DNA from: a virus
Length of the DNA: 64,000 nucleotides
Virus record (IMG/VR): IMGVR_UViG_3300031576_000013
Location: 30,809-94,808 of that record
Direction: 5' to 3' (one strand)
Part shown: in pieces, positions 12,873-44,345 of the stretch
Layout: the number at the start of each line of letters is the position of its first letter
Position numbering within the stretch: position 1 is the first letter of the stretch
Position numbers and translations under genes: made by a program
Notes under the pieces: generated by a model
What the model saw: only the letters and a program-made list of their open reading frames with translations
Database searches by the model: none
Told to the model about the DNA's origin: nothing

Positions 12873-13802
12873 TTAGACGCCGAAGACGCCAGTTGCCTTG
12901 ACCACTGCGGGCTCGTGCATGTACTTCACGTCAAGCCGCAGCGAGACGACCGTGATCACCTGACCCGCCGAGATGTCCTCGCCCATGCGGACGCGAACCT
13001 GACGATGGAACCCGAGGACGAAGTTCTTCGGGTCCGCAAGCAAGACGACGGTTTCGTTCGTACCGGCGCCGAGCGCGTCTGGAAACTCCGGGACGCCGAC
13101 GACGTCGTAGTCCTGGTACTTCGCGTCGGCTTGCGTTGCCAGCTGGATGTCGCCAAGGCTCGTCGCGCGGTTCGCGAGAGAGTCCTTGTAGTCGACTTTT
13201 GCCTGACGGTTCGTGAAGTAGGTGAGCGGCCCGGTCGAGAACTCGTCGGGCAGCGTCTTCAGCATGTCGCGGAGCACGTTCTTGGAGAGCGTGACACCGC
13301 CAGCCACAACGACGTTCGTGACTGCGTGCTTGATGAAACCGTCGAGTACCGCGAGGAGCGCGTCCGCCGACAGGGTGTCACCTTGCGCGATCAGGAAGTC
13401 CACGTCGCGAGCCACGGCTTCCGCCAGGGTCTCTGTGATCGTGTCCTTGTACGAACCGCGCTCGATCTGATCCTCGAGCACCTCGTCCGAGATCCGAACC
13501 TCGGCCTTCACGAGCTTTGCGTCGAGCTCGATGAAGCTGAGATCGGGCCTTGAACGCTGCGCCACCGCGAGGGCCTCGTTCTCCACGCCCGGCTTGAGCA
13601 CGCGCGAGCCGAAACGATGCTTGTCGCGTCGCTCCTTCGGACTCGCCATCGGTGTGACCATGATCCGCTTCATCAGTTCTGCGGATTTGATCATCACTCG
13701 GAAGAAGCGATCCGCCTGCCTCGGAACGAGCAAGCCACCGGCGGCAAGGCCGGCTGTGTCGAGATCTGCCTTTTGCAGCAAGACCCTGTTGTCGGTTGGC
13801 AT
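12873..13802 (-). CDS. Major capsid protein (HK97 fold, P2/XkdG-like)
   Basis: GGLLVPRQADRF, VRISDEVLEDQIE, LIAQGD, DGFIK, DPKNFVLG. Confidence 0.92.
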   Translation of the reverse strand: MPTDNRVLLQKADLDTAGLAAGGLLVPRQADRFFRVMIKSAELMKRIMVTPMASPKERRDKHRFGSRVLKPGVENEALAVAQRSRPDLSFIELDAKLVKAEVRISDEVLEDQIERGSYKDTITETLAEAVARDVDFLIAQGDTLSADALLAVLDGFIKHAVTNVVVAGGVTLSKNVLRDMLKTLPDEFSTGPLTYFTNRQAKVDYKDSLANRATSLGDIQLATQADAKYQDYDVVGVPEFPDALGAGTNETVVLLADPKNFVLGFHRQVRVRMGEDISAGQVITVVSLRLDVKYMHEPAVVKATGVFGV

Positions 13803-13876: not shown

Positions 13877-15133
13877 TTACGCGTTGTAGTCAAGAGGGAA
13901 AAGTCGGGATTCCGAAGACCCGTTCATTTCGGGCGAAGTGACACGATCGCCGGGTCGTGCTTCGGCCTTGGTAAGCGCCTGGCGAAGATCGCCGTTCGAC
14001 TTTTTGAGCGTGGCAAGTTCGGAATTGAGCGGTTCGACTGCCTTCGCCACGGCTTCGTTGATCATGCGTTCGGCTTCGCTGGCACTGATGCCCGGCTCTT
14101 TCTTTGCAGTTGCGGAGGGGTATTTCGAAGCGAGTCCCATGAGCAGCGTGTGGATCGCTTTCAGCTCACGCATTTCCTTTGCCGACGGCGCATCCATGCT
14201 CTTCACGCGGTTGGCAAGAGACAGCGCGCGTTCTGCGGCTTCGGTCAAAATACGCGACATACGACCCGCGCGCTTTTCGACGACCGAGTCATCGAGGGCG
14301 CCCAGAATTGCGCCGATCAGTTGCTGGAGCGAATCCATGTCGGTCGCGTCGATCATCACGCCCCCACGAGGGAACACGCCGTCGAGCTTCTTCGCGAGTT
14401 CGGTGATTGCTTCCTGCGTTGGCGCATCGGCGCTCGTGCTGGCCGACGCAAGCGCCTTCGCCACTTCCTCGATGTCGGCGCCGAGAGTCGCGCCGCTTTG
14501 TGTCGAATCCGGTTCTGGCTTTACCGGCGGTGGAGTCACCGTTTCGGTGCTCGTCGAAGCCGCATCCGATTCAGTCTTCGACATCGCTGCCGGCGCAGGG
14601 TACTTCTCTTTCACACCGGCGATCAACTTCCCGATCGCGGCGATCTCGGCGAGCAGCTTCCCGAAGTCACCTTCAGGCATTTTCTCGCCGCCGGCCTCTT
14701 TCAGCTTGTTGATCACCGAGGTCAAGCGCTCGAGCCCTTCGGTGAGCGTCGTCAACGCGACGGCGTCTTCCATCTTCGCCGAGTCCATCGCGTGAGTTGC
14801 GTCGTGTTCGTTTTTCGCGATGACGGCTGGATACGCATCTTCGATCTTACTCAGGCTGATCGAAACCTCGTGTGCTTCGTCGACGAGCGCTTTCTGTGTT
14901 GCCTCGTTTGCGTCCTTCAACTTGGTCACGATCGAGGTCAGACGCTCCAGGTTCTCAGCCAGCGTGGTAACGGTCTGAGAAACTGCTTTTTCAGTTAGCA
15001 TGGAATTTTCTCCTTCGCGCTTTCTCAAAAGGAAACGTCGTTTGTTCGCGGCTCGATCAACCAAGGAAACCTCCTCGATCTCGAAATCACGTAGACGTGA
15101 GACTGACGGTTTCGTTTTGGATGTCAAGTTCAT
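13877..15133 (-). CDS. Scaffold protein with N-terminal protease strand (EVSLVDRAAN) and three helical repeats
   Basis: Upstream of capsid; coiled-coil and acidic; three L.E..ER..S...K.K...YP repeats; probable internal start GAAGGAG-8 nt-ATG at 15001. Confidence 0.8.
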   Translation of the reverse strand: MNLTSKTKPSVSRLRDFEIEEVSLVDRAANKRRFLLRKREGENSMLTEKAVSQTVTTLAENLERLTSIVTKLKDANEATQKALVDEAHEVSISLSKIEDAYPAVIAKNEHDATHAMDSAKMEDAVALTTLTEGLERLTSVINKLKEAGGEKMPEGDFGKLLAEIAAIGKLIAGVKEKYPAPAAMSKTESDAASTSTETVTPPPVKPEPDSTQSGATLGADIEEVAKALASASTSADAPTQEAITELAKKLDGVFPRGGVMIDATDMDSLQQLIGAILGALDDSVVEKRAGRMSRILTEAAERALSLANRVKSMDAPSAKEMRELKAIHTLLMGLASKYPSATAKKEPGISASEAERMINEAVAKAVEPLNSELATLKKSNGDLRQALTKAEARPGDRVTSPEMNGSSESRLFPLDYNA

Positions 15134-15180
15134 TGATCTCGACGACTTCCTGTTAGCTTACCGCGCCTTGATGCGCGGTT

Positions 15181-18100
15181 TCAAGTAACAAATGGCGCGG
15201 CCAAAATCGAGTAGACCGGATCCGCCTCCTTGATCGCGGTTCCACCTATCGACCATCCGGTAAATTCCCCCCGTTTTACGGCTTCCCACAGCTCGTCGTC
15301 GACGATTCGTGCCGCAAGCAACCAAGTACCTTTTTTTACTGGCTGCTCTGCAACCGTGAAGTCTAGCGGTGCGAGATACGATTCGAGGATCTTTACGCGA
15401 CCATCAATCAATTTTCGGTGCATCAAACCGATATGGCCGTAGCGCTCCATGAACCCATGCGCTGCTTTGCGAATCTCGTCGGAGGAATAAACGTCGTTCT
15501 GCGCGTCGACGGTCTCGGGTTCGAGAACGATTCCCAAGACGTAACGCTCCTCCTTCGCGGTTTCTTCGGCCTTGAACAGCTTGACCGCGTGTGTCCAGGG
15601 GCGAAGCTCCAGTTTTGAAACCGGCGTCGACGAGGATGTCGCTTCTTTCTCGACGATCTTTTCGTAGTCGCGTCGAAGCGCGTCGCAGATTCGATGGGCG
15701 GCTTCTTCGTCGTGGCCTCGCGTCTTTTGATCGGCTACGCAAGCCTCGAAATTAGCGAAGCCGGCGAAGGGTTTTTCGATCTCGACAGAAACCTTCGCTT
15801 GCAATTGACATCCGAGATCCCAGAGCGGGGGAGGCGGTTCGGAAGCGCGCTTCTTGATTTCGTCGGGGTTGAGCATCGCGACGACTTCGTTGACCGTCAT
15901 CGGTGCCTCGTCGGTGACATCGATCACCGTTGGGGTGAATCCCGTGATCTTCCACTTGCCGGCTGTCATGCGGTTGAAGAGCACCTCCGTCACTTCGATG
16001 CGTAGAACATCGCCCGATTCGGCCTTCACCTTGCTGTTGAAGGATTTGCCCGCCGGAGCATATTTTTTCCCGGCGAGCTCGATCAAGTTGGGCCAGTTGC
16101 CTTGTTCCTTCTCGGGAATTGGTCCGAAGGCGTAGAAATAGTTGAAGACGCCCGGCGAATCCTTGACCGGGTGCTTGTCGTAGACGATTCCGCGCACCTC
16201 GCGAATCAGCTTGATCTTCGCCCAACCGTCGCTTTCGCCTCCAAGAGAGTAGGTCGCATTCGCGGATTTGAGCATCGCGCCTTCGGAGCCTGGCGAGGCG
16301 GCTGCCTTCGCGATCAACGAGTCCAGGCTCTCATGCGTTCTCGCTGTGCCCAGCGCCGGTACGAGTTTGATGCGGCTGCTTTGACGCTTGTTGAGGAACG
16401 CTTCCAGCAAACGGCGGCGTTCGGCTTGATCTTTTTGCGTGATGTTTCCCTCGTCGGGCAAATACAGCGCGTCGAAAATTTGTAGTTGGACGTTTGCGTC
16501 GTCGACTACTCCGGTCCCTCGGAACCTGGCCAAGTCCCTGCGGGGCGTGGCGGCGCCGTCGACGAACTCCATGAATTCTGCATCGAGCACGAATGGCCCA
16601 GGGAGTTTTGCCAGCTCGGCCGTGACGCCGGGCCAGTTCTTCATGTAGTTGCGCTGCTCGGTTTTCCGCGAAAAGAACTCTTCGGTGATAATGAAAACGC
16701 GGTCGCCATCTTTCTGAAGGGCGACGCGAAAACCGTTCAGTTTCGGTTCGACGAGGATTCCGCTGTCGAGCAACGCGCCGGTTGCGAAGTCTTCGTGCAG
16801 CCGATCGAGCTCACCACCACGAAACTCGTTCGTCTTTCGGGCTGCGACCTTCATAGGCTTGAAGACCGCGAGCGGCTTCAGCTCCTTCCGATCCCCACCT
16901 TTGTCGTCGGCGTCCTTGATCTTTCGCGGATCCCAAATCTGGACGTCCTCGATCACCGTCCCGTCTTGTAGAGAGACGTCGCGCACCTCGTGCGCCTTTG
17001 TGATCTTCTCACCGGGGACAGCGCGTGAAGGTTGTTTTCCGCGCTCCCATTGCCACAAATCACCGGCTTCCTCTTCGGCAACCAGCACAAATACCCCGTC
17101 ATCGGAGACATCCGCTAGATCGCCTCCGCGTACACGGATCTTCTTGAACTGGCGTTGGTCATCTAGAAATTCGATCTTGCCCCTTGACAGAATTCGCATC
17201 TGCGACGGCGTATTCTTCGAGGGATTGAATTCAACGCCGTGGACCTTTTCGCCGGGCGGCGCATCCCCTTCATAGGCAAGCAGCTTGTCGGCCTCCACGT
17301 TCGTGAGCGCACGGCGAATCACTGCGATCTTGTCGTTCTCGAAGGGGTCGCCTTCGAGTTGAAAATCCTCGATCTCATTCTCGCCGCGCTTGATGAACAG
17401 GTGAAACACCTGCGAGGAAGGCGCGGCACGGATCACGACCTGGCCCTTGAACCGTTGCCACGTCAGCGTGTAGGGCGCTGCCTTCAATTGCTTGAGCAGT
17501 CGCGTAGCGTTTTCCGTAGCTATGGTTGCCGCGATCCGGTCCATAGCTTCTTCCACGGTCCGCGCCTCGACGATCTCCGGCGCGATGTCGGCTGAAGGCC
17601 AAAACTTCTTGGTCTTCAAGGTCAGTCGGAAATCGCGGTTGATCTGTACGGTCTCAGCCGTCACGAGATGAGCTTCGATCAATGCGTTGCGGGTCGCTTC
17701 GACCTCTGATGGCTTATCCTTTTCCCAGTAACGAAATTCAGGCGGAATCGCGTTCTTGATTCCGAGCGGAAGCGCGGATCGGCCCTTCGGAGGGAGTGTC
17801 TTCGTTGCAATCGCGCGGCGCCGCAGAACGCTGGGCGTCAGATCCTTGTTGAACATCGCAACCCAGAAAGCTTCGCCCTCCCGGGTGCGCCGGCCCGTCT
17901 CGACTTCTTCTTCGGACGCGTCCCCTCGGCCCACGAGTAATCTAAAAGTCAGCAGCCCATGAAATTTTTGATCGCCTTCGACGGCGTACTCGGCAAAGAA
18001 CGGCTTGAGAATCAGGTGTGTGACTTGCGGGCGTGCGATTCGAACGATCACGCCTTCCTCCTCGGCGGTTGCGCCCACTTCGCCCGCCTCGAACTTGCGC

Positions 18101-19725
18101 CCTTCGATTTCGAGCCAAATCGGCGGCTGTAGGGACTTCACGGCGGCGAACACGCGATTCGGCGCGTTCATTGGTTTATTCCAGTACGAGCCCTCCATGT
18201 TGAAGGTGACTGCGAGTCGTTTGCCTTCAGGTACGGTGTCTACATCAGGCACTTTTCCTGCGCGCTGGATCGCAAGCGTGAAACCCGTGAGGAAATCCTC
18301 GCCGGTCTTGACACGGAAATCTCCGTGAACCGACCGACCTCTGAAATGACTCTGGAATACGGCCGCGCGGGGTTCTTCCTTTTCGGGATAGATCAGGATT
18401 GGGTTCTGCTGCTTCTCGGCGTCTTCGTCGCGCATATCGACGACGCGTTTTTCGGCGACGGGATGGACGACGAGATCGTAGAGATCTACGTAGCTCGTGT
18501 ATGGACCGCAGCCACCGGTATCTGGATCGGAGTCGTCATGGAATTGAACTCGCTGCGAAATCTCCGGCGGTAGCATCCGACCGAGCCTGAACTTCAAAAC
18601 TTGCAGTGTCTTCTCATCAAGTGGTCCGTCGATGAGCACGTCGACGTCGTTCTTCGTTTCGCCGTTGTTCACGATCGAACCGACTAATCGAACGACCGGT
18701 GCGCGAATCAGGAAGGGCTTCTCGAAGTGTTTGAGAACTTCTTCGAGTTTGAGTGGCGGGTATTCGCCCGTCGATCCCGGATGGATCGGAGCATATCGAT
18801 CGGTCTTGCCCGCCTTCGAAATATCATCGGTTTCTTTGGTACGTGCCACGCCTGAAGGTCCAATCACGAGGGGCTTCCTGCGGCGAAGCCGACGCAGTTC
18901 GGCTTCGATTCCGAGTGGGTCTTCCACCTTGTCGACCAGCGCGCGAGCTTCGCGCGTCAGCTCGTCGTCAAAGGGGTGTTTCAAATCGCGCCGTGTGAAT
19001 TCTTCGATCATGAACGCTTCAGCGTTCACCAGATCTTCGCGGCCAACGCCTTCCGCCGACAGCTTGTCGTTACCAGCGAAAAGGCTTGCGAACGCGGCGT
19101 GCAATTCCCTGTCGAGCCGCTTGAGTTTTGCGTCATCGAAAGCCTTCAGGTTGCGAGGCGTGATCTCCGTCAGGTCGAACGTTGCGTGTTGACCCGGAAC
19201 CGTGTCCAGATCTGCCGTGGTCAGATCGCCCTCACCTTTTGCGACCGCCTCTTCTTCGAGATCGATCTCGGGGCCGTATCGCCGCCCGGGCGGTGTCTTC
19301 TTCAGCTCGATCGGAGGATCGAAAGCCCGAACCAGCTCCATCGGGATGTAGAACACCGGCTTGACCGGTTCGAACTCGGCCAGCGAGAACTTGTCGATCC
19401 CCTCACGCAGCTCCTTCGGGACGTCGTCGAGCGACGCGAACTCCTGCGGCTCTCGTAGAACCACGATCGCCCAGGCGAAGGTCGCCTTGGCCTCTGTCGG
19501 CTCGATCTCGTTTAGCAAGATCTGCGCTTCTCCGCTGCGTCCCTCTTGCTTGCGTCGAGACAGGACGCCTGCGCTCTTGTCCTCTTGAAGCCGTGCGACG
19601 AGCATTGGCGGGTCCGGCATCTTCAATACCGGCAGTGGGCCTGCCGGCATTTCGAACTTGCGCTGCTCTTCTGGGTTCCCCGGCAAGGGAACGACCGCCT
19701 CAACGTGGGCGTTCGGGGTCGACAT
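15181..19725 (-). CDS. Polyprotein: ASCH-like + NTase-like + LigD phosphoesterase-like + ATP-dependent DNA ligase + XkdF-like head maturation protease
   Basis: LVGS-x8-NDVDV; FQSHFRGRSVHGDFR; ligase motifs EPKLNGFR, LDAEF, IFDALY, EGAMLK, WAKIK; C-terminal GIVLEP..DAQND..EIRKAAH.F..H..ESY..GTW..GEFTGWSIGG. Confidence 0.85.
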   Translation of the reverse strand: MSTPNAHVEAVVPLPGNPEEQRKFEMPAGPLPVLKMPDPPMLVARLQEDKSAGVLSRRKQEGRSGEAQILLNEIEPTEAKATFAWAIVVLREPQEFASLDDVPKELREGIDKFSLAEFEPVKPVFYIPMELVRAFDPPIELKKTPPGRRYGPEIDLEEEAVAKGEGDLTTADLDTVPGQHATFDLTEITPRNLKAFDDAKLKRLDRELHAAFASLFAGNDKLSAEGVGREDLVNAEAFMIEEFTRRDLKHPFDDELTREARALVDKVEDPLGIEAELRRLRRRKPLVIGPSGVARTKETDDISKAGKTDRYAPIHPGSTGEYPPLKLEEVLKHFEKPFLIRAPVVRLVGSIVNNGETKNDVDVLIDGPLDEKTLQVLKFRLGRMLPPEISQRVQFHDDSDPDTGGCGPYTSYVDLYDLVVHPVAEKRVVDMRDEDAEKQQNPILIYPEKEEPRAAVFQSHFRGRSVHGDFRVKTGEDFLTGFTLAIQRAGKVPDVDTVPEGKRLAVTFNMEGSYWNKPMNAPNRVFAAVKSLQPPIWLEIEGRKFEAGEVGATAEEEGVIVRIARPQVTHLILKPFFAEYAVEGDQKFHGLLTFRLLVGRGDASEEEVETGRRTREGEAFWVAMFNKDLTPSVLRRRAIATKTLPPKGRSALPLGIKNAIPPEFRYWEKDKPSEVEATRNALIEAHLVTAETVQINRDFRLTLKTKKFWPSADIAPEIVEARTVEEAMDRIAATIATENATRLLKQLKAAPYTLTWQRFKGQVVIRAAPSSQVFHLFIKRGENEIEDFQLEGDPFENDKIAVIRRALTNVEADKLLAYEGDAPPGEKVHGVEFNPSKNTPSQMRILSRGKIEFLDDQRQFKKIRVRGGDLADVSDDGVFVLVAEEEAGDLWQWERGKQPSRAVPGEKITKAHEVRDVSLQDGTVIEDVQIWDPRKIKDADDKGGDRKELKPLAVFKPMKVAARKTNEFRGGELDRLHEDFATGALLDSGILVEPKLNGFRVALQKDGDRVFIITEEFFSRKTEQRNYMKNWPGVTAELAKLPGPFVLDAEFMEFVDGAATPRRDLARFRGTGVVDDANVQLQIFDALYLPDEGNITQKDQAERRRLLEAFLNKRQSSRIKLVPALGTARTHESLDSLIAKAAASPGSEGAMLKSANATYSLGGESDGWAKIKLIREVRGIVYDKHPVKDSPGVFNYFYAFGPIPEKEQGNWPNLIELAGKKYAPAGKSFNSKVKAESGDVLRIEVTEVLFNRMTAGKWKITGFTPTVIDVTDEAPMTVNEVVAMLNPDEIKKRASEPPPPLWDLGCQLQAKVSVEIEKPFAGFANFEACVADQKTRGHDEEAAHRICDALRRDYEKIVEKEATSSSTPVSKLELRPWTHAVKLFKAEETAKEERYVLGIVLEPETVDAQNDVYSSDEIRKAAHGFMERYGHIGLMHRKLIDGRVKILESYLAPLDFTVAEQPVKKGTWLLAARIVDDELWEAVKRGEFTGWSIGGTAIKEADPVYSILAAPFVT
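19668..19682 (-). repeat. Dispersed 15-bp motif, exact copy
   Basis: Near the 5' end of the polyprotein gene. Confidence 0.9.
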
Positions 19726-20086
19726 GTAGCATCTCCGGCGCCCACGCGCTTACGTGCTTCGGCGGTTCCCACAACCTCCCGTCGAGCTCATTCCGCAAAG
19801 CGACTGGCAAAAAATCCACGGCCTTGTCGAGCGACCAGTGCAGATCGCCCTTCAAGATGCGAAACCACTTGATACAGATATCGCTGCGGCGCTTCACTTC
19901 GAGCTTCGATGGATTAGTCGCTGAGACTCGCGCTGCCGCACTCTCATTTCGTTCGAGGTCGTGTTTGAAGGACAGCGTGATCGCTTTGCGCATCCCATTC
20001 AGCACGCGATCAAGCCCATTCGGCTCGTTGATCAGCGAGGCGAAGGGCGCGGGATCCGTCTGGCTGTCGTCCATAGCGGCGATCAT
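19700..20086 (-). CDS. Hypothetical protein
   Basis: 128 aa, in operon between portal and polyprotein. Confidence 0.55.
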   Translation of the reverse strand: MIAAMDDSQTDPAPFASLINEPNGLDRVLNGMRKAITLSFKHDLERNESAAARVSATNPSKLEVKRRSDICIKWFRILKGDLHWSLDKAVDFLPVALRNELDGRLWEPPKHVSAWAPEMLHVDPERPR

Positions 20087-20107: not shown

Positions 20108-20362
20108 CTACGTCAGCGTGATCAAACCGGTTTTCAGCTTCAATGCCACGCGGATGCCTTCGCCGTCTCTGGAGATTATCGCGTCAACTTTTCCCAGGCA
20201 CTCTGGGCATACAACCATCGCGACCCCACCGCCGTATCTGACGGTCACTTGTGTCTCCAGCACGCTCACCCGTTTGCACGCACGACACGCACCGACTCCC
20301 AGCGCTGCTGCCTTTTGCGCAGCTACAAAATCCGCGTACCCGGCCGGCCGATCCCCCGTCAT
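20108..20362 (-). CDS. Small zinc-finger protein
   Basis: CRAC...CPEC; ATGA overlap with the portal stop. Confidence 0.55.
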   Translation of the reverse strand: MTGDRPAGYADFVAAQKAAALGVGACRACKRVSVLETQVTVRYGGGVAMVVCPECLGKVDAIISRDGEGIRVALKLKTGLITLT

Positions 20363-22146
20363 TTTTCAGGTATCTCCTCGCCGCCAGTTCCTATTCCGGC
20401 TAACCGTTTATCATCGCCAGCTTCCCTGCGCCCCTGTGCGTGCCCGTTTGGCTCCTGGCGATGTTCGGCCCGGCCTTCCGAGGCGATTTGACTTGTCAAA
20501 GCTCGAATCCTTCCAGCCACGCGCTCCCCCTCTTCTTCTGGATTCCTTGATGGGGAACCTTTTCGAGCTTCCTGAAGGGTCAACTTGAAGGGCTGTTGTG
20601 TCCACGGATCTGTCAAAACTGGCAGTTCGCGGTTGAACACGTCGGTCGCTAGCGCGCGGCCCTCAGCTGGTGTGAGAACGCCTGCGTCGGAGAGCGTAGC
20701 TACGATCTCGGCCAGCACTTCGGGATCTTTTGTCGTCGGAGAGTTGGACTCGAATTTCCAGAAGGAGATGTGAAGTTCAGGCAGTAACTTTCTATTTATC
20801 ACTTCGTCGAACTGGTTTCGCAGCGGGGTGAAGACTTGATCTTCAGCTAGACGCAATGCGGCAAAAGCCGTGGCGCGATTGATCGCCCGGTCGCGCCCCA
20901 CCAAAATTCGTGGCAATCGGAAGCTCGACCCGATTTTTTCCCAGTTGCCCTCGTCGTAGTTTTGAAACAATGCATCTTGCTGCTGCGCTTCGCGTAGCGG
21001 GACGAACTTCATCGACGGGACGATTCCAGACGTACCTCCGGTCGATTTTTGGCCTTCGGCTTCGAGGACAAGAATCTTGTGGAAGTTTTTTCGTCCTTTG
21101 ATGTTGCTCTCGATGAACTCCTCGATGCGCGGCACAACCCCTTTAGCAAGCCGTCCGCCAGCGACGAGCAGCGCAAGCGGAGGGACGGTCTTGCTCTGGA
21201 AATAACTGAGGTTCACCTCGTCCAGTTCCCGGGAACCCAGAACAGCGGGTAGATTGCCGATCCATTGAGGGACTCCGTAAGTGGAACCAGGCGTCGGGAT
21301 TGCGAAGTGCAAAATTTCGTTGGCGGGTGCGTCCAGTGGCGGCTTGTCGGGATCGGCTTCGAGTGCTGCCGGCGACGCATAAATCTTGCCTGTTGCTCGC
21401 GAGACGGTGCGTGGGTCGCCGAATTCTTTGAAATACGCCTTGATCTTGCCCTGAATCGGATCGATCTCGGCGAACTTGCGAAAGAATCGGCGTTGAACGA
21501 CTTCCGTCGTCGAGATGCGTGTGGTTGGAATGCGTTCTTTTGTCTCAACAGGGATCGGATCGAGGGGCAGCAAACGCATCGTCACCGACGGTGCGAGCAC
21601 CAACCGCGCCGGCATTATTCTGTTGTCGCGTAGGATTTCCCAATATGCGTTTCCAGTCGTCAGCAAGTCTCGACGTGTTCGAGAGCGCAGCTCGACGAAG
21701 GAGTAATCGGGGCAACAGACGGCAAAGAAGGTACGCAGGCGATTGATTTCGATGCGCGCAACTCTGCGTAATTCTTCGAGTTTTGCACGAACGGCTTCGG
21801 AATCCGGCTCGACGAACGGCTCGCGGCGTTCCTCGCTTAGAACCAACCGTTCGACGATCATCTCGTCCCGGATATCGGCTTCGGCACCAGGCCGTGTGAG
21901 GTCAATTCCGGCAGTGTATTTGTGGCCGAACGCGTCGACGTTCGTGACGATCGCCTCAATATGCTGAGACAGCGACGACGAAAGCTCGTAGAGCTGAAGC
22001 AGCGTTTCGGGCGCGTACTTCGGTTCGAGGACGCCGGTTACGGCCTTTCCTTTTTGAGTGAGCGCTGTGAGCCACTCCACGGTCGAGACGGGGGCGTCCC
22101 TAAAGGTCGCCTTTCCAACGACGTTTTTCTCTTTCTTTTTCGGCAC
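20359..22146 (-). CDS. Portal protein (PBSX/XkdE-like)
   Basis: DLLTTGNAYWEI.R, FKEFGDPR, NEILHF, YGVPQW, FRLP..LVG...NRATA. Confidence 0.93.
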   Translation of the reverse strand: MPKKKEKNVVGKATFRDAPVSTVEWLTALTQKGKAVTGVLEPKYAPETLLQLYELSSSLSQHIEAIVTNVDAFGHKYTAGIDLTRPGAEADIRDEMIVERLVLSEERREPFVEPDSEAVRAKLEELRRVARIEINRLRTFFAVCCPDYSFVELRSRTRRDLLTTGNAYWEILRDNRIMPARLVLAPSVTMRLLPLDPIPVETKERIPTTRISTTEVVQRRFFRKFAEIDPIQGKIKAYFKEFGDPRTVSRATGKIYASPAALEADPDKPPLDAPANEILHFAIPTPGSTYGVPQWIGNLPAVLGSRELDEVNLSYFQSKTVPPLALLVAGGRLAKGVVPRIEEFIESNIKGRKNFHKILVLEAEGQKSTGGTSGIVPSMKFVPLREAQQQDALFQNYDEGNWEKIGSSFRLPRILVGRDRAINRATAFAALRLAEDQVFTPLRNQFDEVINRKLLPELHISFWKFESNSPTTKDPEVLAEIVATLSDAGVLTPAEGRALATDVFNRELPVLTDPWTQQPFKLTLQEARKGSPSRNPEEEGERVAGRIRALTSQIASEGRAEHRQEPNGHAQGRREAGDDKRLAGIGTGGEEIPEK

Positions 22147-22551: not shown

Positions 22552-22616
22552 AATCTACAGCACTTACATAGGTCTTTGCAACGGCCCGACTTTTCGATAA
22601 GGTATGATCGCGAATG
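22552..22616. promoter_or_regulatory. Divergent promoter region between head operon and fibre cluster
   Basis: Plus strand GGTATGAT-5 nt-ATG (22614); minus strand TTGCAA-18-TAGATT upstream of 22533. Confidence 0.5.
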
Positions 22617-24719
22617 TCCGACCAGTTCTTTCTCGGCTCGGTTTTTGTGAATTCCGACGCCGGAACTTTGACGCAGGGCGACGTAGTCGTTTTCGACTCG
22701 GCGACCAACGGAGGAGTTAAACGAACCAGTATCGCAGGCGCGTCCAACACCGCTGGTATCGTCGTAGACGGCGGTCCGACGGCGACTCAAGTTTCGATCG
22801 CGACGATTGGTGGCCAGCGAACTCGCATAAAGGTCGCTCTCGGTGATGCTATCGCGCGGCTGGACAAACTGGTTACAAGCATCACGCCGGGGGTAGCAAA
22901 AGTTGACAACACCGCTGGGCTGGGCGCGGTCTTCGCTGTAGCGATTGAGGAGAAAGCGTCTGGCGACGGAACGGAAGTCGACGCGATTCTGCTTCCTTTC
23001 GGGATTGGGGCTCCGACAGGTGGACCGGTCACGGGCAGCGGCGTTGGAACCCGTGTCGCTTTTTGGACGCCTGTCGGGGCGACGACGGATCTAGGCAGCG
23101 ATCCGAGTCTTTACTGGGACAACACAGCCAAGCGCCTTGGTATCGGTACAACCACGCCGACAACCGATCTGGAAATCAAGAACGTCACAGCCGGCCCGAA
23201 GATCACGCTGCGCGCTGCTGGAGATATGATTGCAACGCTCTCGGTCGAGAGCGACGCGACGGCCAGTTTTGCCGTTTTCGATCCGGCGGGAGGTAGCACT
23301 GATCTGCTACTCAACGCAGACAACAACATCGTCGGAAACACTCCAGCCTACCAATTTTCTCCCAACGGCCCGACGGTAGATGCGAGCTTCGCTTCACAGA
23401 TTACGACGCTGATCAATTTCGCAACTTATGATAGCGCGATCGCCCGGACAATAACCAACGCCGCTACGGTCGGCATCGCAGGTCCGCCTGTTGCCAGCGG
23501 CAGCGTCACCATAACGAATTCGTATTCTTTGTGGTCGCAATCCGGAAATGTGCTGATCGAGGAACCCGCCGACACGGCCATACTTACGGTCAGAGCGTCA
23601 GGTTCCAGCAATTCGCGTGTAGTCGTTCATTCCGTCGCCGACATTGCCGAATTGATACTTCAGGGTCCGGCTGGCAATGCGGCGATGTTTTTGGACGGAA
23701 ATATTCTTCAAACCACCCTCAATACGGGCGGTAGTGTGCCTGACATCCAGGTGCACAGTGGTGGAACTTCCGTTGCTACGTACCACTATGCAACGATCAG
23801 CAATACACCCCTTGCTGCGGGAACAGTAGCTGAACGCCATCAGTTCCTCATCGATCCCACTAATTATAGTGGGACTGGCACGATCACCATCGCAGCCACC
23901 TTGACGGTTTATGGCCCGCCTACGGTATCTGGAGGCGGCACCATCACGAACCCCTTTGCATCATGGGTTCGCGACGGCAGCGTCAGATTCGACAGCGTTA
24001 CGGGCGCGGCCAAAGTTTTCGCAATCGATCAGAAATCTGGCGCCGGAAGTTGGACTGTTGCATTCCAAGATAGTGCCGTAACTCAAGCGGTAATCTTCTG
24101 GAGCACGTCTGAAGTAACCTTTCAGACCGTACCTGAAAATGTAGATCTCGTCCTCGGCGCGTCCGGCGACGCGACGTTGACGATCGAAGGTCCGAACAAC
24201 CACTCGCTCGTAATGGTGGGCACTCAGCTTTCGCCCAATGCGCCGACCGGGTATTTCTATCTGCGGACGATGGCGGGAAAACCTGTCAGTTTTCCAACCA
24301 GCGAAGGCGACAGCGCAGTTCCACTCGTCGTCGATACCGTCAACAATCGATTCTGTTTCTATTCGAGCGCTGCGTGGCATTGCATAGGTGGCACGGCGGT
24401 TGAGAACTTCGACATCATCAACACCGATTCGACGCTGCTAACCGCCGATCACGACACGATCGTTCGCACGACCAGCGGTACCATAACTGTCTTTTTGCCG
24501 CTGGTAAGTTCAGTTCCTAAAGGTAAGATGATCCGAGTTCGCACACGAATTGGCGCCGGTGACGTGATAATGACCCGTAGCGGCACCGACGTAATATCGG
24601 GTTCTACGGGTAATTCTCAAACATCGGAGACTTGTTCCGGGGCGAGCAACGTCTTGCAATTTATCTCCAACGGTCCTGCAACCGGCCGTTGGGATCTAAT
24701 TCAGCGCGACGGAGTTTAA
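22614..24719 (+). CDS. Fibre/spike protein with N-terminal cement-like domain
   Basis: Thr/Gly/Ala-rich beta protein; LYWDNTAKRLGIGTTTP fibre motif; TVFLP...GK tail. Confidence 0.7.
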   Translation: MSDQFFLGSVFVNSDAGTLTQGDVVVFDSATNGGVKRTSIAGASNTAGIVVDGGPTATQVSIATIGGQRTRIKVALGDAIARLDKLVTSITPGVAKVDNTAGLGAVFAVAIEEKASGDGTEVDAILLPFGIGAPTGGPVTGSGVGTRVAFWTPVGATTDLGSDPSLYWDNTAKRLGIGTTTPTTDLEIKNVTAGPKITLRAAGDMIATLSVESDATASFAVFDPAGGSTDLLLNADNNIVGNTPAYQFSPNGPTVDASFASQITTLINFATYDSAIARTITNAATVGIAGPPVASGSVTITNSYSLWSQSGNVLIEEPADTAILTVRASGSSNSRVVVHSVADIAELILQGPAGNAAMFLDGNILQTTLNTGGSVPDIQVHSGGTSVATYHYATISNTPLAAGTVAERHQFLIDPTNYSGTGTITIAATLTVYGPPTVSGGGTITNPFASWVRDGSVRFDSVTGAAKVFAIDQKSGAGSWTVAFQDSAVTQAVIFWSTSEVTFQTVPENVDLVLGASGDATLTIEGPNNHSLVMVGTQLSPNAPTGYFYLRTMAGKPVSFPTSEGDSAVPLVVDTVNNRFCFYSSAAWHCIGGTAVENFDIINTDSTLLTADHDTIVRTTSGTITVFLPLVSSVPKGKMIRVRTRIGAGDVIMTRSGTDVISGSTGNSQTSETCSGASNVLQFISNGPATGRWDLIQRDGV

Positions 24720-39900: not shown

Positions 39901-39934
39901 TCTCGGATGCCGATACGGCTAACGCAGAGTTCAC
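36911..39934 (-). CDS. polA: Family A DNA polymerase with intein and an N-terminal segment matching the C-terminal part of UDG
   Basis: Exo motifs DTET, HNMAYD, YNARD; motif A DSKAIE, B R..TKRSVYARNY, C HDQ; N-terminal PTLHPAFLLR. Confidence 0.92.
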   Translation of the reverse strand: MNSALAVSASEIPEQGSGWTSPKTLLIPTLHPAFLLRGANHYYEVVVTDLKRAARIAEDGWHRAERIYTILPAGGGNVSVDWAVNWIWENFKAGKPAAIDTETYGVGKRDALDQYSCGLHAVGISFWPSNEALSFIADGTIGENETRRLLEATRAVMGGPNPKIFHNMAYDIEVLYRYGMPLGGAYYDNLVLHHITDPEQDHNLGFVSHQFLDIAAWKADFKALQRKKQAALANLVSYNARDALATQELLPILMQRVTEIEQGHVAQMDTQLAELSARMGRYGIPIGEDKRREVEARLIQKRDAALAFVRSTMAWPDFDPRKPSHRSELLYARLALPVKVYTTKKSLPSTSAAALVPHLGNEVIRALVDFDKNAKLVSTFIAKLPDLVDKYGRLHIHWKSTGTVGSRWSSEQPSIQNWPKMLRAIVQTREGRVLVGADSKAIEHRIMAARAGCKKLVEIFNDPSRDVHNETAADFFGEQFTKLEKKSQAWIDLRFLTKRSVYARNYRAKAETIYGKIMEHLDTPASIRATLTLGFVKEICKNFDRAFPEIGMFCEQEWERTNRLGYQEVPPIGRRRYHAVLPVEITLSSNNCVDDKTEALTLRGWVAGPNLKPDDYLLTKNHITGALEWQKPTAIHRFPKYRGPLYRFETKTMSAVTTPNHRWLVDTLYERSVCKTSAELSHWGNDRIHRTGIYPGAELKTYSDDFVELAAWTLTDGYIGHPNSGRTYISLFQSEEANPEKAGRIDELFVRLRPFVNAYVSYRNKVHKIWRFTGPTARMLGTIFPDRILTFDFLLRLTTSQLRLLKETMIDGDGTRCGGAVVFCAGTKAKADMFQTLCILCNEAASIRKVDFRKYVLKSKKMPNVPKSRCAYYVHVYKRTRAQLMPNTVRYFKNAKASLWCPSVPNGYFVARRAGRTYVTGNSIQFPAGDYQNLSMLAIDDELRRKYSDAHIILNVHDQIVVECRESDAPAIRSMVEEKMRHKVEGPAGHVWLLADASIARNWEKVS
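37169..38161 (-). mobile_element. Intein with LAGLIDADG endonuclease in DNA polymerase (331 aa)
   Basis: SNN/CVDDKTE...TPNHRW...LTDG...IDGDG...YVTGN/SIQ. Confidence 0.9.
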
Positions 39935-41514
39935 GACGCGGCCTTATCTTCTGTGATCGGTGCTATATCGATCTCGTGAATTGCGCCTCGACGTTCCATG
40001 ATCTTGGCGTTCGTGTCGTACAGAGAGCGCAATGCGACCGCGCCAAGGCCCACCACGACTCGCGGTTTGACAATCGCGAGTTCGTTGATCAAACGTGTAC
40101 GGCAATGTTGCGCAGATAGTTTGACGACTTGATCGGGGTTGAGTTGGACACCGTTATGGGTGAGCGTTCGGGGCTTGCAGTTGTGAACAATTCCAGCCAT
40201 CGTTACGAAATTACCCGTTTCTGCGACGTCTATGCAGTAGACGACTCCGTTTGGGCGTCTTGGTGTTGATTTAATGGTAGCTGCTCGATCCCAGTAGGTA
40301 GTCGGTGGCGTAGGTAAATACGCTTCTTTGTCAAATTTACCCCGTAGATTTGATGGCAATTTATAATCTAGATCAGGTGGGATAAATTTAGCGAGCGATT
40401 CTAAAAGTCGTTGAGTGCCGTTAGCCGTAAATGCTATGCGCCACCCGTGACCTTGACGTAAGTGACATTCAAAACCCTTATCGTTAACTAATTTGGACAG
40501 CCAAGCGACGTCGCTCTGGGAAAATGCGCATGTCGCGATTTCTGCAAGTGGGCGTCTGGTTTCCCTTAAACATGTGTACCCATCGTCGCAGAACCATACC
40601 GCGAGACCCAAAATGTCAAGATGATTTAAATATTGTTTGGCTGCATTCGATATTCCTTTGATGCCGTTGGGATAGAAAGCGGTGCGCATCGTTGCAATCC
40701 ATCGTGAAGCGTGAGTGGATACCCGTGTTTGATGCTGAATGTTGTTAACTCCAGGAGGCAGTTCGCTTATAGTGGGCATTAACGGACTAAGCGATTTAGC
40801 TTTCAATAGCGCATAAGACCGTTGATCATTCGCATGTGCAAACACCAAAGCCGATCTGTTCTTTGGGATGCAGGCGGCTCCTAACAAGGTACCAATAAAA
40901 ACTTGCAAACTACGTCCTTGTAAAGCGATTTGTCCGGTGGCGATTAGTTCACCATCAATGTCTCCAGCAGGAACCCATCCGTGAGGTGTCAAAAAAGGAT
41001 GGTCGACAGTGAAGCTTCCGGCCGAAATGCCTTTATCGCCAGCCAGTCGAGCGCTGCTAAAGTTTATCCGACACATTTCGCGCCCATTAAGATGGTTTCG
41101 ATACCATCCTGTGATCAAACTGGAACTAAGCGTGCCGTCTGATTTTAACGTCTTGACAGGTCCGCGAAGTTGTTTTGCTACAATTTCATTTATTCGACAT
41201 CTAGAGCCGTCACTCATACGAATTTGAGTCGTACCTTCGACACACAGAGCCGAATTCGATACCCATACTTCTGACCGAATGATCCCCGCGTCGGCCAGCA
41301 TCCGATTCAAATGCTGCCCCGCTGCGCCTACGAACGGCCGTAGTTCTTGCTCCTCGTTGTAGCCGGGGCCTTCGCCGATGATCGCGAGCTTCGCGCGAGG
41401 GTTTCCTTCGGGCGGTACAATCTTTGCGCCCTGTAAAGGACAGCCCGTGCAGTCGGGAATCGCAAGCAGCCCTCGATAAAATGGAAGGGCAACATCGTCA
41501 GGTGTGTCTTGCAC
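39931..41514 (-). CDS. Family 4-like uracil-DNA glycosylase, N-terminal part, with intein
   Basis: CTGCPL, IGEGPG..E...PFVGAAG, SNSAL/CKP, VVVGLGAVA; lacks the HPA motif. Confidence 0.88.
   Translation of the reverse strand: MQDTPDDVALPFYRGLLAIPDCTGCPLQGAKIVPPEGNPRAKLAIIGEGPGYNEEQELRPFVGAAGQHLNRMLADAGIIRSEVWVSNSALCVEGTTQIRMSDGSRCRINEIVAKQLRGPVKTLKSDGTLSSSLITGWYRNHLNGREMCRINFSSARLAGDKGISAGSFTVDHPFLTPHGWVPAGDIDGELIATGQIALQGRSLQVFIGTLLGAACIPKNRSALVFAHANDQRSYALLKAKSLSPLMPTISELPPGVNNIQHQTRVSTHASRWIATMRTAFYPNGIKGISNAAKQYLNHLDILGLAVWFCDDGYTCLRETRRPLAEIATCAFSQSDVAWLSKLVNDKGFECHLRQGHGWRIAFTANGTQRLLESLAKFIPPDLDYKLPSNLRGKFDKEAYLPTPPTTYWDRAATIKSTPRRPNGVVYCIDVAETGNFVTMAGIVHNCKPRTLTHNGVQLNPDQVVKLSAQHCRTRLINELAIVKPRVVVGLGAVALRSLYDTNAKIMERRGAIHEIDIAPITEDKAAS
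40180..41244 (-). mobile_element. Intein in UDG (355 aa)
   Basis: SAL/CVEGTT...TVDHPF...LLGAA...WFCDDG...IVHN/CKP. Confidence 0.9.
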
Positions 41515-42293: not shown

Positions 42294-44345
42294 TTATGCG
42301 ATTCCGCCCGGCGCAACGGGTAAGTTAGGCTGTTGGTGTTCCGAATTATTCTGTTGCGGTACTGGATTAATATAAGCTGCCGGATCTTCGCCAATGAACG
42401 GCCCGATACGGTGCGCAATAAAAGCGAAATGCGCCGGTATTGTGCCATCAGCAAAAGCAGCGCCGAATCTTCCTCCGGCCGGCGCCCCGTCAGCTGTCAC
42501 CGTTCGTAGCATGAACTGCGACACCAATTGACCTTGTTCCGTTCGTACCTGTTGCACGACCGATCTCATGATTAGATCGCACGAACCAGGCAATTTGGAA
42601 CTCGTGTTATGACAAACTATGCCATTCGCTACGAAGTTGTGCGTTCCAGGTATGGTTAGATCGAAAACCTCGCGTTCACCACCATCCCGAATTTGTTTGA
42701 TCGGAACGAACACGAATTCAGCAGATGCCTTAAGCATGAAAGTTATGTCTTCGTCGTAGGTTGCTAGTAAAGCCAACCTCTCAACGGTTCGCGTGTTCAT
42801 GTTTTGAACACCGGCGGTGTACGTTCGAAGTTCAAGCGTAGAACCGTCGAGCAGGCGCACCCGTTTTTGGGAGCGGTTCAACGCAGTGGTGAGTAGGCTT
42901 CGAGCCCACACCCGCTTGAGTCGTGCTGCTTGATGCGGCAAACTTTCTTTGCCTCGGTCAAGTGACTCTTTCGCCACTGCGATTTGTAGCCGGTCAGCCT
43001 TCATTTTGTTGTGTAAGAAGCCTATTTCTTTTGCGAAAATACGCAGCGCTCGGCCGCTAATAGACAAGCGCCAATAGGATTTGTCCCCGATAACTTTACG
43101 AAATAGCGACGCGTGGACGCCAAAGTTCCTTAGAACGGTTTGGACGTCGTACGCCATACTCTCAGACGCTGTGGACCATTCGATCTGCCCGACTGCTTTG
43201 TTGCAAAAGCCGTCGGTATCGAACAGGCCACGGATGAACATCGCAACGGATTCTCGGGGCGCGTTAAGGACGCTGGTCGGGAACACTTTACCAGCCGCTC
43301 GGCTGTATTTAACGCCGAGATCGGCGATGCGCGCCCGGATCTGTTTCGAGTAAATACCGTGAATATCGGCTAATTTGCCAGTCGTTTTCGGCTGATATCC
43401 AAAGTGCTTGTGAAAATATTCCTTGAAGGCTTGTACTACGCCGTCTTGGCGACGACAGAGTTTGATCGCGCGTTCTTGTGTTACAACACCGTCGCCTGTG
43501 ATCACTCCTAGAATATATGCGATCTCGGGATCTAGAGGCTGCGACCCCCACAAATTGGTAGCGCGGGGTAGAGCGACGTAGTCGCCTTTGTTCAAATTTC
43601 TTATTTCACGGAACTCAAGATCCCCGCTTTCGTTCATCACAAGGATGGGGTGCTCGGGCGTGCCGATCAACCGACTCTCGTCGACAAGTATAGCTTCAAG
43701 GGTTCGGCTCTTTCCCATTGGTAGATGGGCGGCAACAGCGCAGTTCTCGAAGCGATCTGTATCCCACGCAGTTATTTTGGCTCCTAACAGCGTCTTATCG
43801 GCCATTCGACGAAAACCGCAACTACTCGCAACGAGAGATTGCGCATCTAGACATTTTCCGTAGAGCATTGCTTTGTAGCCGACAACTTGGCCTTCCGGTC
43901 CTCTGTCCGATTCCTCCAGAGCGATCCAAACGACGTGCATCGGAACGTTGCGGAGGGTAGGTAGAAGCCACTTCTGCAAGTGCAAATCGAGCATACCCCA
44001 ATCACGCTGTCGCATCGGCCGCGTTCCATCTGTTGTCAGCTCCTGCAAAAAGATGTCGCTGTAATACGTGATGGAGTCGACTACGATCGTCCGCCAACCA
44101 TATCTGTCGCGATTTTTGGCGATGTAGTCAATTGCTTCCTTCATGTCTTGGCTACGGCCAATGGGTATTACGTCAGCGTTGCAGAAGCGAAGGGTGGTGT
44201 CGCCGCCTTCATTTCCGGCTGATAGAAACACCGGTTTCGGGAACGTGCTGGCCACCGTAGTCTTTCCGGAGCGCAGTGCTCCGTATATAAACGTGTGCAA
44301 AGGTTTGGGCGGCATCTGTTGTGAATTGATGACTTGAATTGCCAT
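42294..44345 (-). CDS. AAA_24/Sak4-like recombination ATPase with intein
   Basis: YGALRSGKTT, EGG, IVVDSIT, DWG, HVVWIA. Confidence 0.85.
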   Translation of the reverse strand: MAIQVINSQQMPPKPLHTFIYGALRSGKTTVASTFPKPVFLSAGNEGGDTTLRFCNADVIPIGRSQDMKEAIDYIAKNRDRYGWRTIVVDSITYYSDIFLQELTTDGTRPMRQRDWGMLDLHLQKWLLPTLRNVPMHVVWIALEESDRGPEGQVVGYKAMLYGKCLDAQSLVASSCGFRRMADKTLLGAKITAWDTDRFENCAVAAHLPMGKSRTLEAILVDESRLIGTPEHPILVMNESGDLEFREIRNLNKGDYVALPRATNLWGSQPLDPEIAYILGVITGDGVVTQERAIKLCRRQDGVVQAFKEYFHKHFGYQPKTTGKLADIHGIYSKQIRARIADLGVKYSRAAGKVFPTSVLNAPRESVAMFIRGLFDTDGFCNKAVGQIEWSTASESMAYDVQTVLRNFGVHASLFRKVIGDKSYWRLSISGRALRIFAKEIGFLHNKMKADRLQIAVAKESLDRGKESLPHQAARLKRVWARSLLTTALNRSQKRVRLLDGSTLELRTYTAGVQNMNTRTVERLALLATYDEDITFMLKASAEFVFVPIKQIRDGGEREVFDLTIPGTHNFVANGIVCHNTSSKLPGSCDLIMRSVVQQVRTEQGQLVSQFMLRTVTADGAPAGGRFGAAFADGTIPAHFAFIAHRIGPFIGEDPAAYINPVPQQNNSEHQQPNLPVAPGGIA
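42606..43853 (-). mobile_element. Intein with LAGLIDADG endonuclease in Sak4-like ATPase (416 aa)
   Basis: YGK/CLDAQS...TPEHP...LGVITGDG...GLFDTDG...VCHN/TSS. Confidence 0.92.

Follow-up and report, generated by a model that had tools for sequence, protein, structure and literature searches.

A viral head gene joining LigD-like repair domains to an XkdF-type protease: a candidate capsid-targeted polyvalent protein

In this study we analysed a 64,000-nucleotide stretch of viral DNA (the window; positions 30,809 to 94,808 of IMG/VR record IMGVR_UViG_3300031576_000013), and in it a minus-strand gene at 15181-19725 that encodes a protein of 1514 amino acids (aa). The gene sits in the protease slot of the head module, with the portal gene upstream and the scaffold and capsid genes downstream, and its open reading frame (ORF) is intact. 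The protein combines a minimal nucleotidyltransferase (NT), a LigD-type 3'-phosphoesterase (PE1), a degenerate second copy of it (PE2) and an ATP-dependent DNA ligase with an XkdF-type prohead protease at the C-terminus. We give about an even chance to the reading that the gene encodes a capsid-targeted polyvalent protein, whose LigD-like, Ku-independent repair cargo is in part retained in the head and delivered with the DNA. A sequence-only reading of the window had named an ASCH-like N-terminus, a Pol-beta-type GS-x-DxD motif, a QxH-x-HxDFR motif, a ligase with a KLNG variant and a C-terminal XkdF-like protease. This observation was borne out in every detail: all five domain assignments held, and the motifs lie where they had been placed.

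Domains of the polyprotein and their catalytic residues

Relatives were collected with aa 1-985 in a full HMMER pass, which gave 966 clusters at 50% identity (E<=1e-3), almost all from uncultured viruses and including viruses of both bacteria and archaea; the domains were mapped on 160 proteins. Homologues of 1400-2600 aa had the same architecture, and the catalytic residues were conserved across the family in all four enzymes. In Pfam at E<=1, only the ligase and XkdF were recognized on the protein, and PHROGs and NCBIfam agreed. Two pieces of the N-terminal part were folded from homologue alignments with AlphaFold2 (AF2), aa 1-295 at a mean confidence (pLDDT) of 81.9 and aa 296-712 at 87.8.

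The DNA_ligase_A_M model of Pfam (PF01068) matched aa 988-1172 with 67.3 bits against a cut-off of 26.2 (2e-18). The residues of nucleotidyltransferase motifs I, III, IV and V (K995, E1050, K1153, K1170 and K1172) were present and kept in 75-92 of 93 relatives, with K995 in 89, E1050 in 90, K1153 in 92 and K1170 in 91. Motif I, K995-L-N-G, starts at 16743, and position 997 was Asn in 54 and Asp in 34 of the 93 relatives, so that the Asn variant is a trait of the family and not a defect. The nearest solved sequences were archaeal and human DNA ligases (PDB 3gde, 8e-10), and a profile of the whole protein retrieved only ligases from the PDB. Furthermore, the alignment to archaeal ligases runs on past motif V, and an OB domain was found in 121 of the 160 family proteins. 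The Cys-motif insert that follows it (aa 1296-1384) was present in only 4 of these 160 and absent from most aligned homologues. No other ATP- or NAD-dependent ligase was found in the 94.8-kb record.

The assignment of PE1 rests on fold and profile-profile evidence, since searches at the sequence level failed: LigD_N (PF13298) had no match on the protein at E<=1 nor in six frames of the record at E<=10, and phmmer against PDB sequences returned nothing at E<=10. The predicted model has the eight-stranded PE barrel fold. With VIA it was superposed on 3p4h_A at Z 15.2 (117 of 118 residues aligned, root-mean-square deviation (rmsd) 2.0) and on 3n9b_A at Z 13.0, and the top seven Foldseek matches in the PDB were all LigD PE domains (3p43, E 1e-5, TM 0.81 on the target). 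When 143 family PE1 segments were compared by hhalign with 24 genuine LigD_N domains from bacterial genomes, the two profiles matched across the whole domain (probability 94.9%, E 4e-8), and Q458, H460, H467, D469 and R471 were aligned to LigD Q40, H42, H48, D50 and R52. The motif, Q458-x-H460...H467-x-D469-x-R471, lies at 18315-18354, and its five residues were kept in 122-142 of the 143 relatives (H460 and H467 in 139 each, D469 in 141, R471 in 142). Compared with the aligned LigD sequences, one more residue separates the two His. The PE1 family also has a H-E-Y motif of its own, which reads A-E-Y in this phage and likewise in only 4 of 143 relatives.

PE1 is followed by an alpha/beta tail module (aa 627-712). 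Short XkdF proteins (390-735 aa) of related phages matched the query only at residues about 616-709; with the tail module alone preceding XkdF in these proteins, it may belong to the protease or to assembly and not to the repair cargo. Next comes PE2, which had not been listed by the sequence-only reading. Profiles of PE1 (143 segments) and PE2 (111 segments) matched each other in hhalign with probability 96-97% and E 1e-9 to 1e-10, and PE2 matched LigD_N with probability 94.1% and E 1.2e-7. Deep profiles were required for this, as with only 10 sequences the comparison of PE1 and PE2 was not significant (E 0.31). PE2 is without the His/His/Asp/Arg metal site and is thus, judging from its residues, probably a binding module.

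The nucleotidyltransferase was recognized from motif and fold together, there being no Pfam match at E<=1. Its motif, G349-S350...D360-x-D362, lies at 18642-18681. Among 123 relatives G349 was invariant, position 350 was G or S, D360 was kept in 122 and D362 in 119 (Glu in the other 4), and the third carboxylate, D417, was kept in 97. A small alpha/beta domain (aa 339-419) of the predicted model matched MNT-type structures at Z 5.0-5.7 (8xeh_E, 1no5_B, 1wot and 1ylq, over 66-76 residues), a range in which fold alone is not decisive, and Foldseek found 8xeo with probability 0.87. This modest match is in line with the invariant G[GS]...DxD motif. Of the nucleotide-adding domain that had been proposed, the Pol-beta type stands, and the equivalence to the LigD polymerase does not: the domain is minimal and MNT-like, not of the AEP type. 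A segment K-A-G-x-x-D-R-Y-A-P-I (aa 304-314; 18783-18815, minus strand), kept in at least 90% of aligned homologues, was observed in the low-confidence linker before NT; it could be a short linear motif, for example a cleavage or docking site.

The N-terminal domain (N1) had no Pfam ASCH match at E<=1, and a search of the ESM Atlas with aa 20-170 gave a weak PUA-like lead with scores below 0.9. Its predicted fold matched ASCH structures in VIA (6kir, Z 8.8, 122 residues aligned, rmsd 3.6; ZmASCH 5guq, Z 8.7), and Foldseek listed 2p5d, 2kku, 1t62, 5y7d, 9kyf and 5y6b with probabilities of 0.95-1.0 and E 2e-3 to 3e-2. The helical domain behind it (HEL) had generic helical matches only and was present in 102 of the 160 family proteins.

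These domains could also be read as an RNA-directed or signalling set, which would repair cleaved host or phage RNA, such as tRNAs that anticodon nucleases have cut, make or destroy nucleotide signals or AMPylate a host protein, with DNA sealing as a secondary activity. We consider this quite unlikely. ASCH domains are RNA-binding or RNA-modifying, and ZmASCH and YqfB are among the fold matches of N1. The LigD PE family acts on 3'-ribonucleotides and 2',3'-cyclic phosphates, and MNT-type nucleotidyltransferases, the family of the matches 8xeh and 7ae2, AMPylate proteins. Moreover, protein-directed nucleotidyltransferases and signal-degrading phosphoesterases have been proposed in polyvalent proteins (Iyer et al., 2017; PMC5512222). 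However, DNA ligases are the nearest match of the sealing enzyme, which also has an OB domain. With neither a 5'-kinase nor an RtcB-type ligase encoded, the set would have no means of joining RNA ends that carry a 5'-OH, and neither PADLOC nor Pfam gave a signalling-related match.

Protease, scaffold docking and the head module

The Peptidase_S78_2/XkdF model (PF14550) matched aa 1388-1499 with 103.3 bits against a cut-off of 24 (1.2e-29), covering profile positions 7-124 of 126, and H1436, S1492 and D1407 were each invariant in 103 of 103 sequences. It is the sole XkdF- or HK97-type protease domain in the 94.8-kb IMG/VR record from which the window was taken (estimated completeness 64%). With no other head protease found in the record, maturation requires that the polyprotein get into the procapsid.

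A possible route was indicated by the scaffold-like gene directly downstream. Its product carries at aa 13-40 (15014-15097) an N-terminal strand motif of the EVSLVDRAAN type, conserved in 55 distinct scaffolds with the pattern [FH]RL.D...EVSLVDRAANKRRFLVVK. In phrog_3017 this strand motif stands directly before XkdF in one chain: aa 13-52 of the scaffold match positions 4-43 of the family, and the polyprotein matches positions 37-154. The XkdF domain (aa 1380-1514) was modelled in complex with the N-terminal 60 residues of the scaffold, together with 3 controls. In the prediction the strand docked on the protease with an ipSAE of 0.78, against 0.00 for the best control, a score level attained for 58 of 80 solved complexes and for 2 of 110 mismatched pairs. 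The docking runs agreed in at least 82% of contacts, with partner pLDDT of at least 56, and the predicted contacts place scaffold V22 and S23 against W1491-G1494 and residues 1432-1433, by the catalytic Ser and near H1436. The score may stem from likeness to proteases that carry the strand in cis, so that it would speak for likeness rather than for binding. Docking to the scaffold is nevertheless, in the model, a plausible route of the protease and its cargo into the procapsid. The sequence-only reading had regarded the protease as a capsid-loading tag; its loading part is plausible in view of the sole head protease, the scaffold strand that recurs in related loci, its predicted docking, the variable cargo ahead of XkdF and the position of even unfused modules in the head cluster. 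Its interpretation is thereby supported in part; the steps that it placed after loading, namely a possible ejection and the circularisation of the genome or the reversal of restriction/CRISPR breaks, would be more conjectural.

On the minus strand the order of genes is portal, two small ORFs, the 1514-aa gene, the scaffold-like gene and the major capsid protein gene (Table 1). The 128-aa ORF directly upstream (19700-20086) had no family match in Pfam or PHROGs, and in 45 of 71 related loci a homologue of it precedes the XkdF gene, which makes it a conserved partner in the head module. A perfect 7-bp hairpin (15160-15179, minus strand; ACCGCGC, loop ATCAAG, GCGCGGT) begins two bases past the TGA of the polyprotein and 27 nucleotides (nt) ahead of the scaffold ATG, with no T-run after it; it may influence how stable the mRNA is or how much protease is translated relative to scaffold. 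That protease and scaffold are fused by read-through or frameshifting was considered and rejected, as the scaffold starts 47 nt past the stop in a different frame. A cut-site motif for the protease in the linkers was likewise considered and dropped, since XkdF has no established specificity.

Outside the head genes, no terminase of the phage was identified in the window with Pfam and PHROGs, and a 701-aa ORF without Pfam or PHROG match lies at 22614-24719 (plus strand), divergent from the portal gene. The replication genes of the record include PolA, DnaB and the UvrD and SNF2 helicases. Four replication genes, namely those of a UDG-family protein (39931-41514), an AAA_24 ATPase (42294-44345), a PD-(D/E)XK nuclease (44358-46412) and the DnaB helicase (48101-50458), had inteins or LAGLIDADG matches, an unusual intein density within about 10 kb.

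Table 1. Features of the polyvalent head gene and its neighbours (nucleotide positions in the window)
Feature	Residues (aa)	Position	Strand	Basis or remark
Whole polyvalent head gene (P0001)	1-1514	15181..19725	-	1514 aa, open throughout, no internal stop
ASCH/PUA-like beta-barrel (N1)	28-176	19198..19644	-	AF2 pLDDT >90, VIA, Foldseek
Conserved helical domain (HEL)	178-268	18922..19194	-	helices, pLDDT about 90
Minimal Pol-beta-superfamily nucleotidyltransferase (NT)	330-425	18451..18738	-	motif and fold
LigD-type 3'-phosphoesterase barrel (PE1)	452-626	17848..18372	-	metal site kept
Alpha/beta tail module after PE1	627-712	17590..17847	-	pLDDT 95-98
Second, degenerate PE-like domain (PE2)	745-905	17011..17493	-	profile-profile comparison
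ATP-dependent DNA ligase adenylation domain	925-1175	16201..16953	-	PF01068 2e-18
Ligase OB-fold domain	1176-1290	15856..16200	-	by position and family knowledge
Lineage-specific Cys-motif insert (GFANFEACV...ICDAL)	1296-1384	15574..15840	-	between ligase OB and XkdF
XkdF-type prohead serine protease	1385-1505	15211..15573	-	PF14550 1.2e-29
Conserved 128-aa ORF directly upstream		19700..20086	-	26-nt overlap with polyprotein start
Portal gene		20359..22146	-	PF04860 9.5e-22, phrog_12 3e-38
Scaffold-like gene (P0161), 418 aa		13877..15133	-	aa 13-52 match phrog_3017 'head maturation protease'
Major capsid protein gene		12873..13802	-	phrog_1623 1.5e-76, phrog_10 7e-10

Relatives and comparison with known systems

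Two domain orders recurred among the 160 proteins: (ASCH)-HEL-NT-PE1-PE2-LIG-OB-XkdF, and HEL-NT-LIG-OB-PE1-PE2, the latter often without XkdF (LIG, ligase). The ligase was accompanied by NT and a PE barrel in 33 of 38 non-redundant IMG/VR genes; in the five exceptions NT or the full PE barrel was missing from the ORF, and in two of them (L080 and L087) an adjacent ORF supplies it. The genomic context was compared in 79 IMG/VR loci, 71 of which had an XkdF gene. In 69 of these 71 the XkdF gene was followed by a scaffold bearing the strand motif and in 65 then by the capsid gene, the portal gene was found upstream in 49, and the cargo ahead of XkdF measured between 168 and 2310 aa. In these loci, a constant capsid-associated end goes with a variable cargo. 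Where the module was not fused (L078 and L082), it lay between the terminase gene, with a probable portal gene, and a separate head protease and capsid gene. In five relatives of 100-116 kb with a short XkdF protein, two had a standalone ligase elsewhere in the genome and three had no ATP-dependent ligase; two of these three are 100% complete, indicating that the ligase is accessory in this lineage.

A deposited relative is a protein of the archaeal virus ANMV-1 (AJP62006.1, KP703175), deposited as 'ATP-dependent DNA ligase'. It has 866 aa in the order NT-LIG-OB-PE1-PE2, and its family HMM E-values for NT, LIG, OB, PE1 and PE2 were 8e-30, 2e-50, 4e-15, 5e-50 and 3e-33, respectively. Its gene is located about 4.4 kb from that of the terminase large subunit. 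It differs from the present protein in that XkdF and ASCH are lacking, the ligase precedes the PE domains and the identity is about 26%.

These contexts bear on a late cytoplasmic role, according to which the fusion would serve co-expression only, and the enzymes, set free by the protease and lost from the procapsid along with scaffold fragments, or never taken up into it, would act on replicating or recombining phage DNA late in infection. No other ligase was found in the record in spite of its own PolA, DnaB, UvrD and SNF2 proteins, and the standalone ligases of the two relatives with short XkdF proteins would also fit such a role. However, an unfused module also keeps its place in the head cluster, likewise in ANMV-1, and the joining of Okazaki fragments needs neither the PE nor the NT that accompany the ligase in the 33 genes. 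A tether to a scaffold-docking protein would, furthermore, sequester a replication enzyme. We therefore regard repair or replication in the late cytoplasm as unlikely.

Some homologues carry further additions, such as Dam or C5 methylases and inteins. In one homologue of 1419 aa (P0010), the Pfam family Tad3, a type I Thoeris inhibitor, was inserted between NT and PE1 (E 8.5e-8); if, as published work holds, phage proteins against host defence have to act on entry, its presence would fit an early action. These additions have to be considered together with a role in the producer cell, in which the enzymes in the procapsid or at the portal would seal nicks, heal ends or mature termini during packaging, and not in the next host. 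The head-module position and the predicted scaffold docking serve this explanation equally, and the polyprotein carries the only ligase of the record. Packaging motors stall at nicks and branches in DNA, and since ligases come pre-adenylylated on purification, a single turnover in the head would not need ATP. However, the two complete relatives without an ATP-dependent ligase mean that packaging in this lineage does not need one, and the methylases and Tad3 in the variable cargo of homologues fit functions in the next host better. Packaging-associated repair thus appears to us fairly unlikely.

A scan of genome contigs yielded 3 loci, of which two lie on one 105.8-kb contig of a Myxococcales metagenome-assembled genome and one is a 3.3-kb fragment. 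The two on the former (L003 and L004 on JACPVI010000063.1) are diverged copies of the polyprotein gene, with 46% and 38% identity to the query, near its opposite ends; this could reflect mis-binning or chimerism of a phage contig, or a phage that has two paralogues. A search of BFVD gave one viral match (E 2e-4), and PADLOC gave none.

The class to which we assign the gene is already published. For polyvalent proteins with a C-terminal assemblin-like peptidase, packaging in the head and delivery with the DNA have been predicted (Iyer et al., 2017; PMC5512222). Like them, the present protein is a multidomain chain of a phage of the portal/terminase type, with several disparate, unrelated enzymatic domains and a peptidase that is always C-terminal; the Dam and C5 methylases and the anti-Thoeris domain of its homologues are also typical of the class. 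In contrast, no ATP-dependent DNA ligase, LigD phosphoesterase, ASCH or XkdF domain is described in that paper: the word 'ligase' occurs 3 times and for RNA ligases only, 'LigD' and 'XkdF' occur 0 times, and its Pol-beta nucleotidyltransferases come from firmicute conjugative elements, where they are fused to ArdC-N. The cargo is different as well, being a repair module and not an inhibitor or modifier. In a literature search for XkdF with ligase, LigD or phosphoesterase with capsid, and ligase with maturation protease, this architecture was not described. A ligase/PE/NT repair cargo on an XkdF protease is thus a new variation of that class.

The likeness to LigD was claimed by the sequence-only reading and holds in part. 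As in LigD, one chain combines a nucleotide-adding enzyme and an ATP-dependent ligase with a PE domain that has the LigD fold and metal site, so the analogy stands for the chemistry expected from the three families, and the domain order varies between members in both. The analogy does not extend to an AEP polymerase or to Ku. In place of the AEP primase-polymerase there is an MNT-like Pol-beta nucleotidyltransferase of roughly 100 aa, and Pfam and NCBIfam gave no AEP-type match on the protein outside the ligase and XkdF. The phosphate-contacting LigD residues His84 and Tyr88 (Pseudomonas numbering) are replaced by Gln/Glu and Trp, and PE1 misses the LigD_N model of Pfam. Finally, LigD has neither the additional dead PE copy nor the fusion of the entire set to a capsid protease.

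Proposed mechanism and its meaning

Under the reading that we favour, namely a repair cargo that travels with the capsid, the XkdF head-maturation protease would bind the N-terminal EVSLVD-type strand of the scaffold and so enter the procapsid, carrying with it about 1380 residues of N-terminal cargo. During maturation the protease would probably cut the chain into separate enzymes, some of which would be retained in the head and pass into the next cell together with the DNA. In that cell, PE1 would free DNA ends of blocking 3'-phosphates or 3'-ribonucleotides, the minimal nucleotidyltransferase would perhaps extend 3' ends by one or a few nucleotides, and the ligase, with its nucleotidyltransferase and OB domains, would close 3'-OH/5'-phosphate breaks, while the ASCH-like domain and the dead PE2 copy would probably hold nucleic acid. 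Nicks, cohesive ends or breaks inflicted by host defence might in this way be healed and sealed before any phage gene is expressed.

Precedents for such a delivery are known. The internal proteins IPI-III and Alt of T4 and the virion RNA polymerase of N4 are loaded into the prohead, injected with the DNA and act before phage gene expression, and the T4 internal proteins are processed by the prohead protease. T4 differs in using a short cleavable targeting peptide, in contrast to the fusion to the protease itself seen here. To our knowledge, none of these proteins is a DNA end-repair enzyme.

Several points weigh against the proposed delivery of a repair set. As a rule, prohead proteases and scaffolds have left the head by the time DNA is packaged, and the cleaved cargo could therefore exit too. 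Neither PE1 nor NT reaches any Pfam model, and the fold match of NT is modest (Z <6). MNT-type enzymes adenylylate proteins as well as acting on nucleic acids. In PE1, the counterpart of His84 is Gln533 (Q in 63, E in 50 and H in 16 of 143 relatives) and that of Tyr88 is Trp537 (140 of 143), and at position 578 this phage has Ala in place of the His found in 115 of 143 relatives. Motif I of the ligase reads KLNG and not KxDG. Ku (PF02735) was not found at E<=1 and no 5'-kinase is encoded in the 94.8-kb record, which is about 64% complete, so that end bridging and 5'-OH ends are not covered. In addition, no cultured phage in the collection matched beyond the XkdF end, and ANMV-1 alone matched the cargo.

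A bolder form of the same idea is that the phage injects a pre-made set of PE, nucleotidyltransferase and ligase, which would reseal restriction, CRISPR or nicking breaks, or its own termini, within seconds, and that the protease is completed in trans by the scaffold strand. We consider this version rather doubtful. As to the protease, the docked scaffold strand in the model suggests a general way in which XkdF-type proteases might be recruited, and perhaps switched on, inside procapsids.

If the delivery of a repair cargo is true, LigD-style end healing and sealing would occur outside cellular non-homologous end joining, with a minimal Pol-beta nucleotidyltransferase replacing the AEP polymerase and without Ku. 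The idea is directly testable, since each domain has clear catalytic residues to mutate. It would also mean that the phage counters defence by mending the damage and not by inhibiting the attacker and, should the enzymes travel in the virion, this would be a principle of counter-defence not yet demonstrated for phages.

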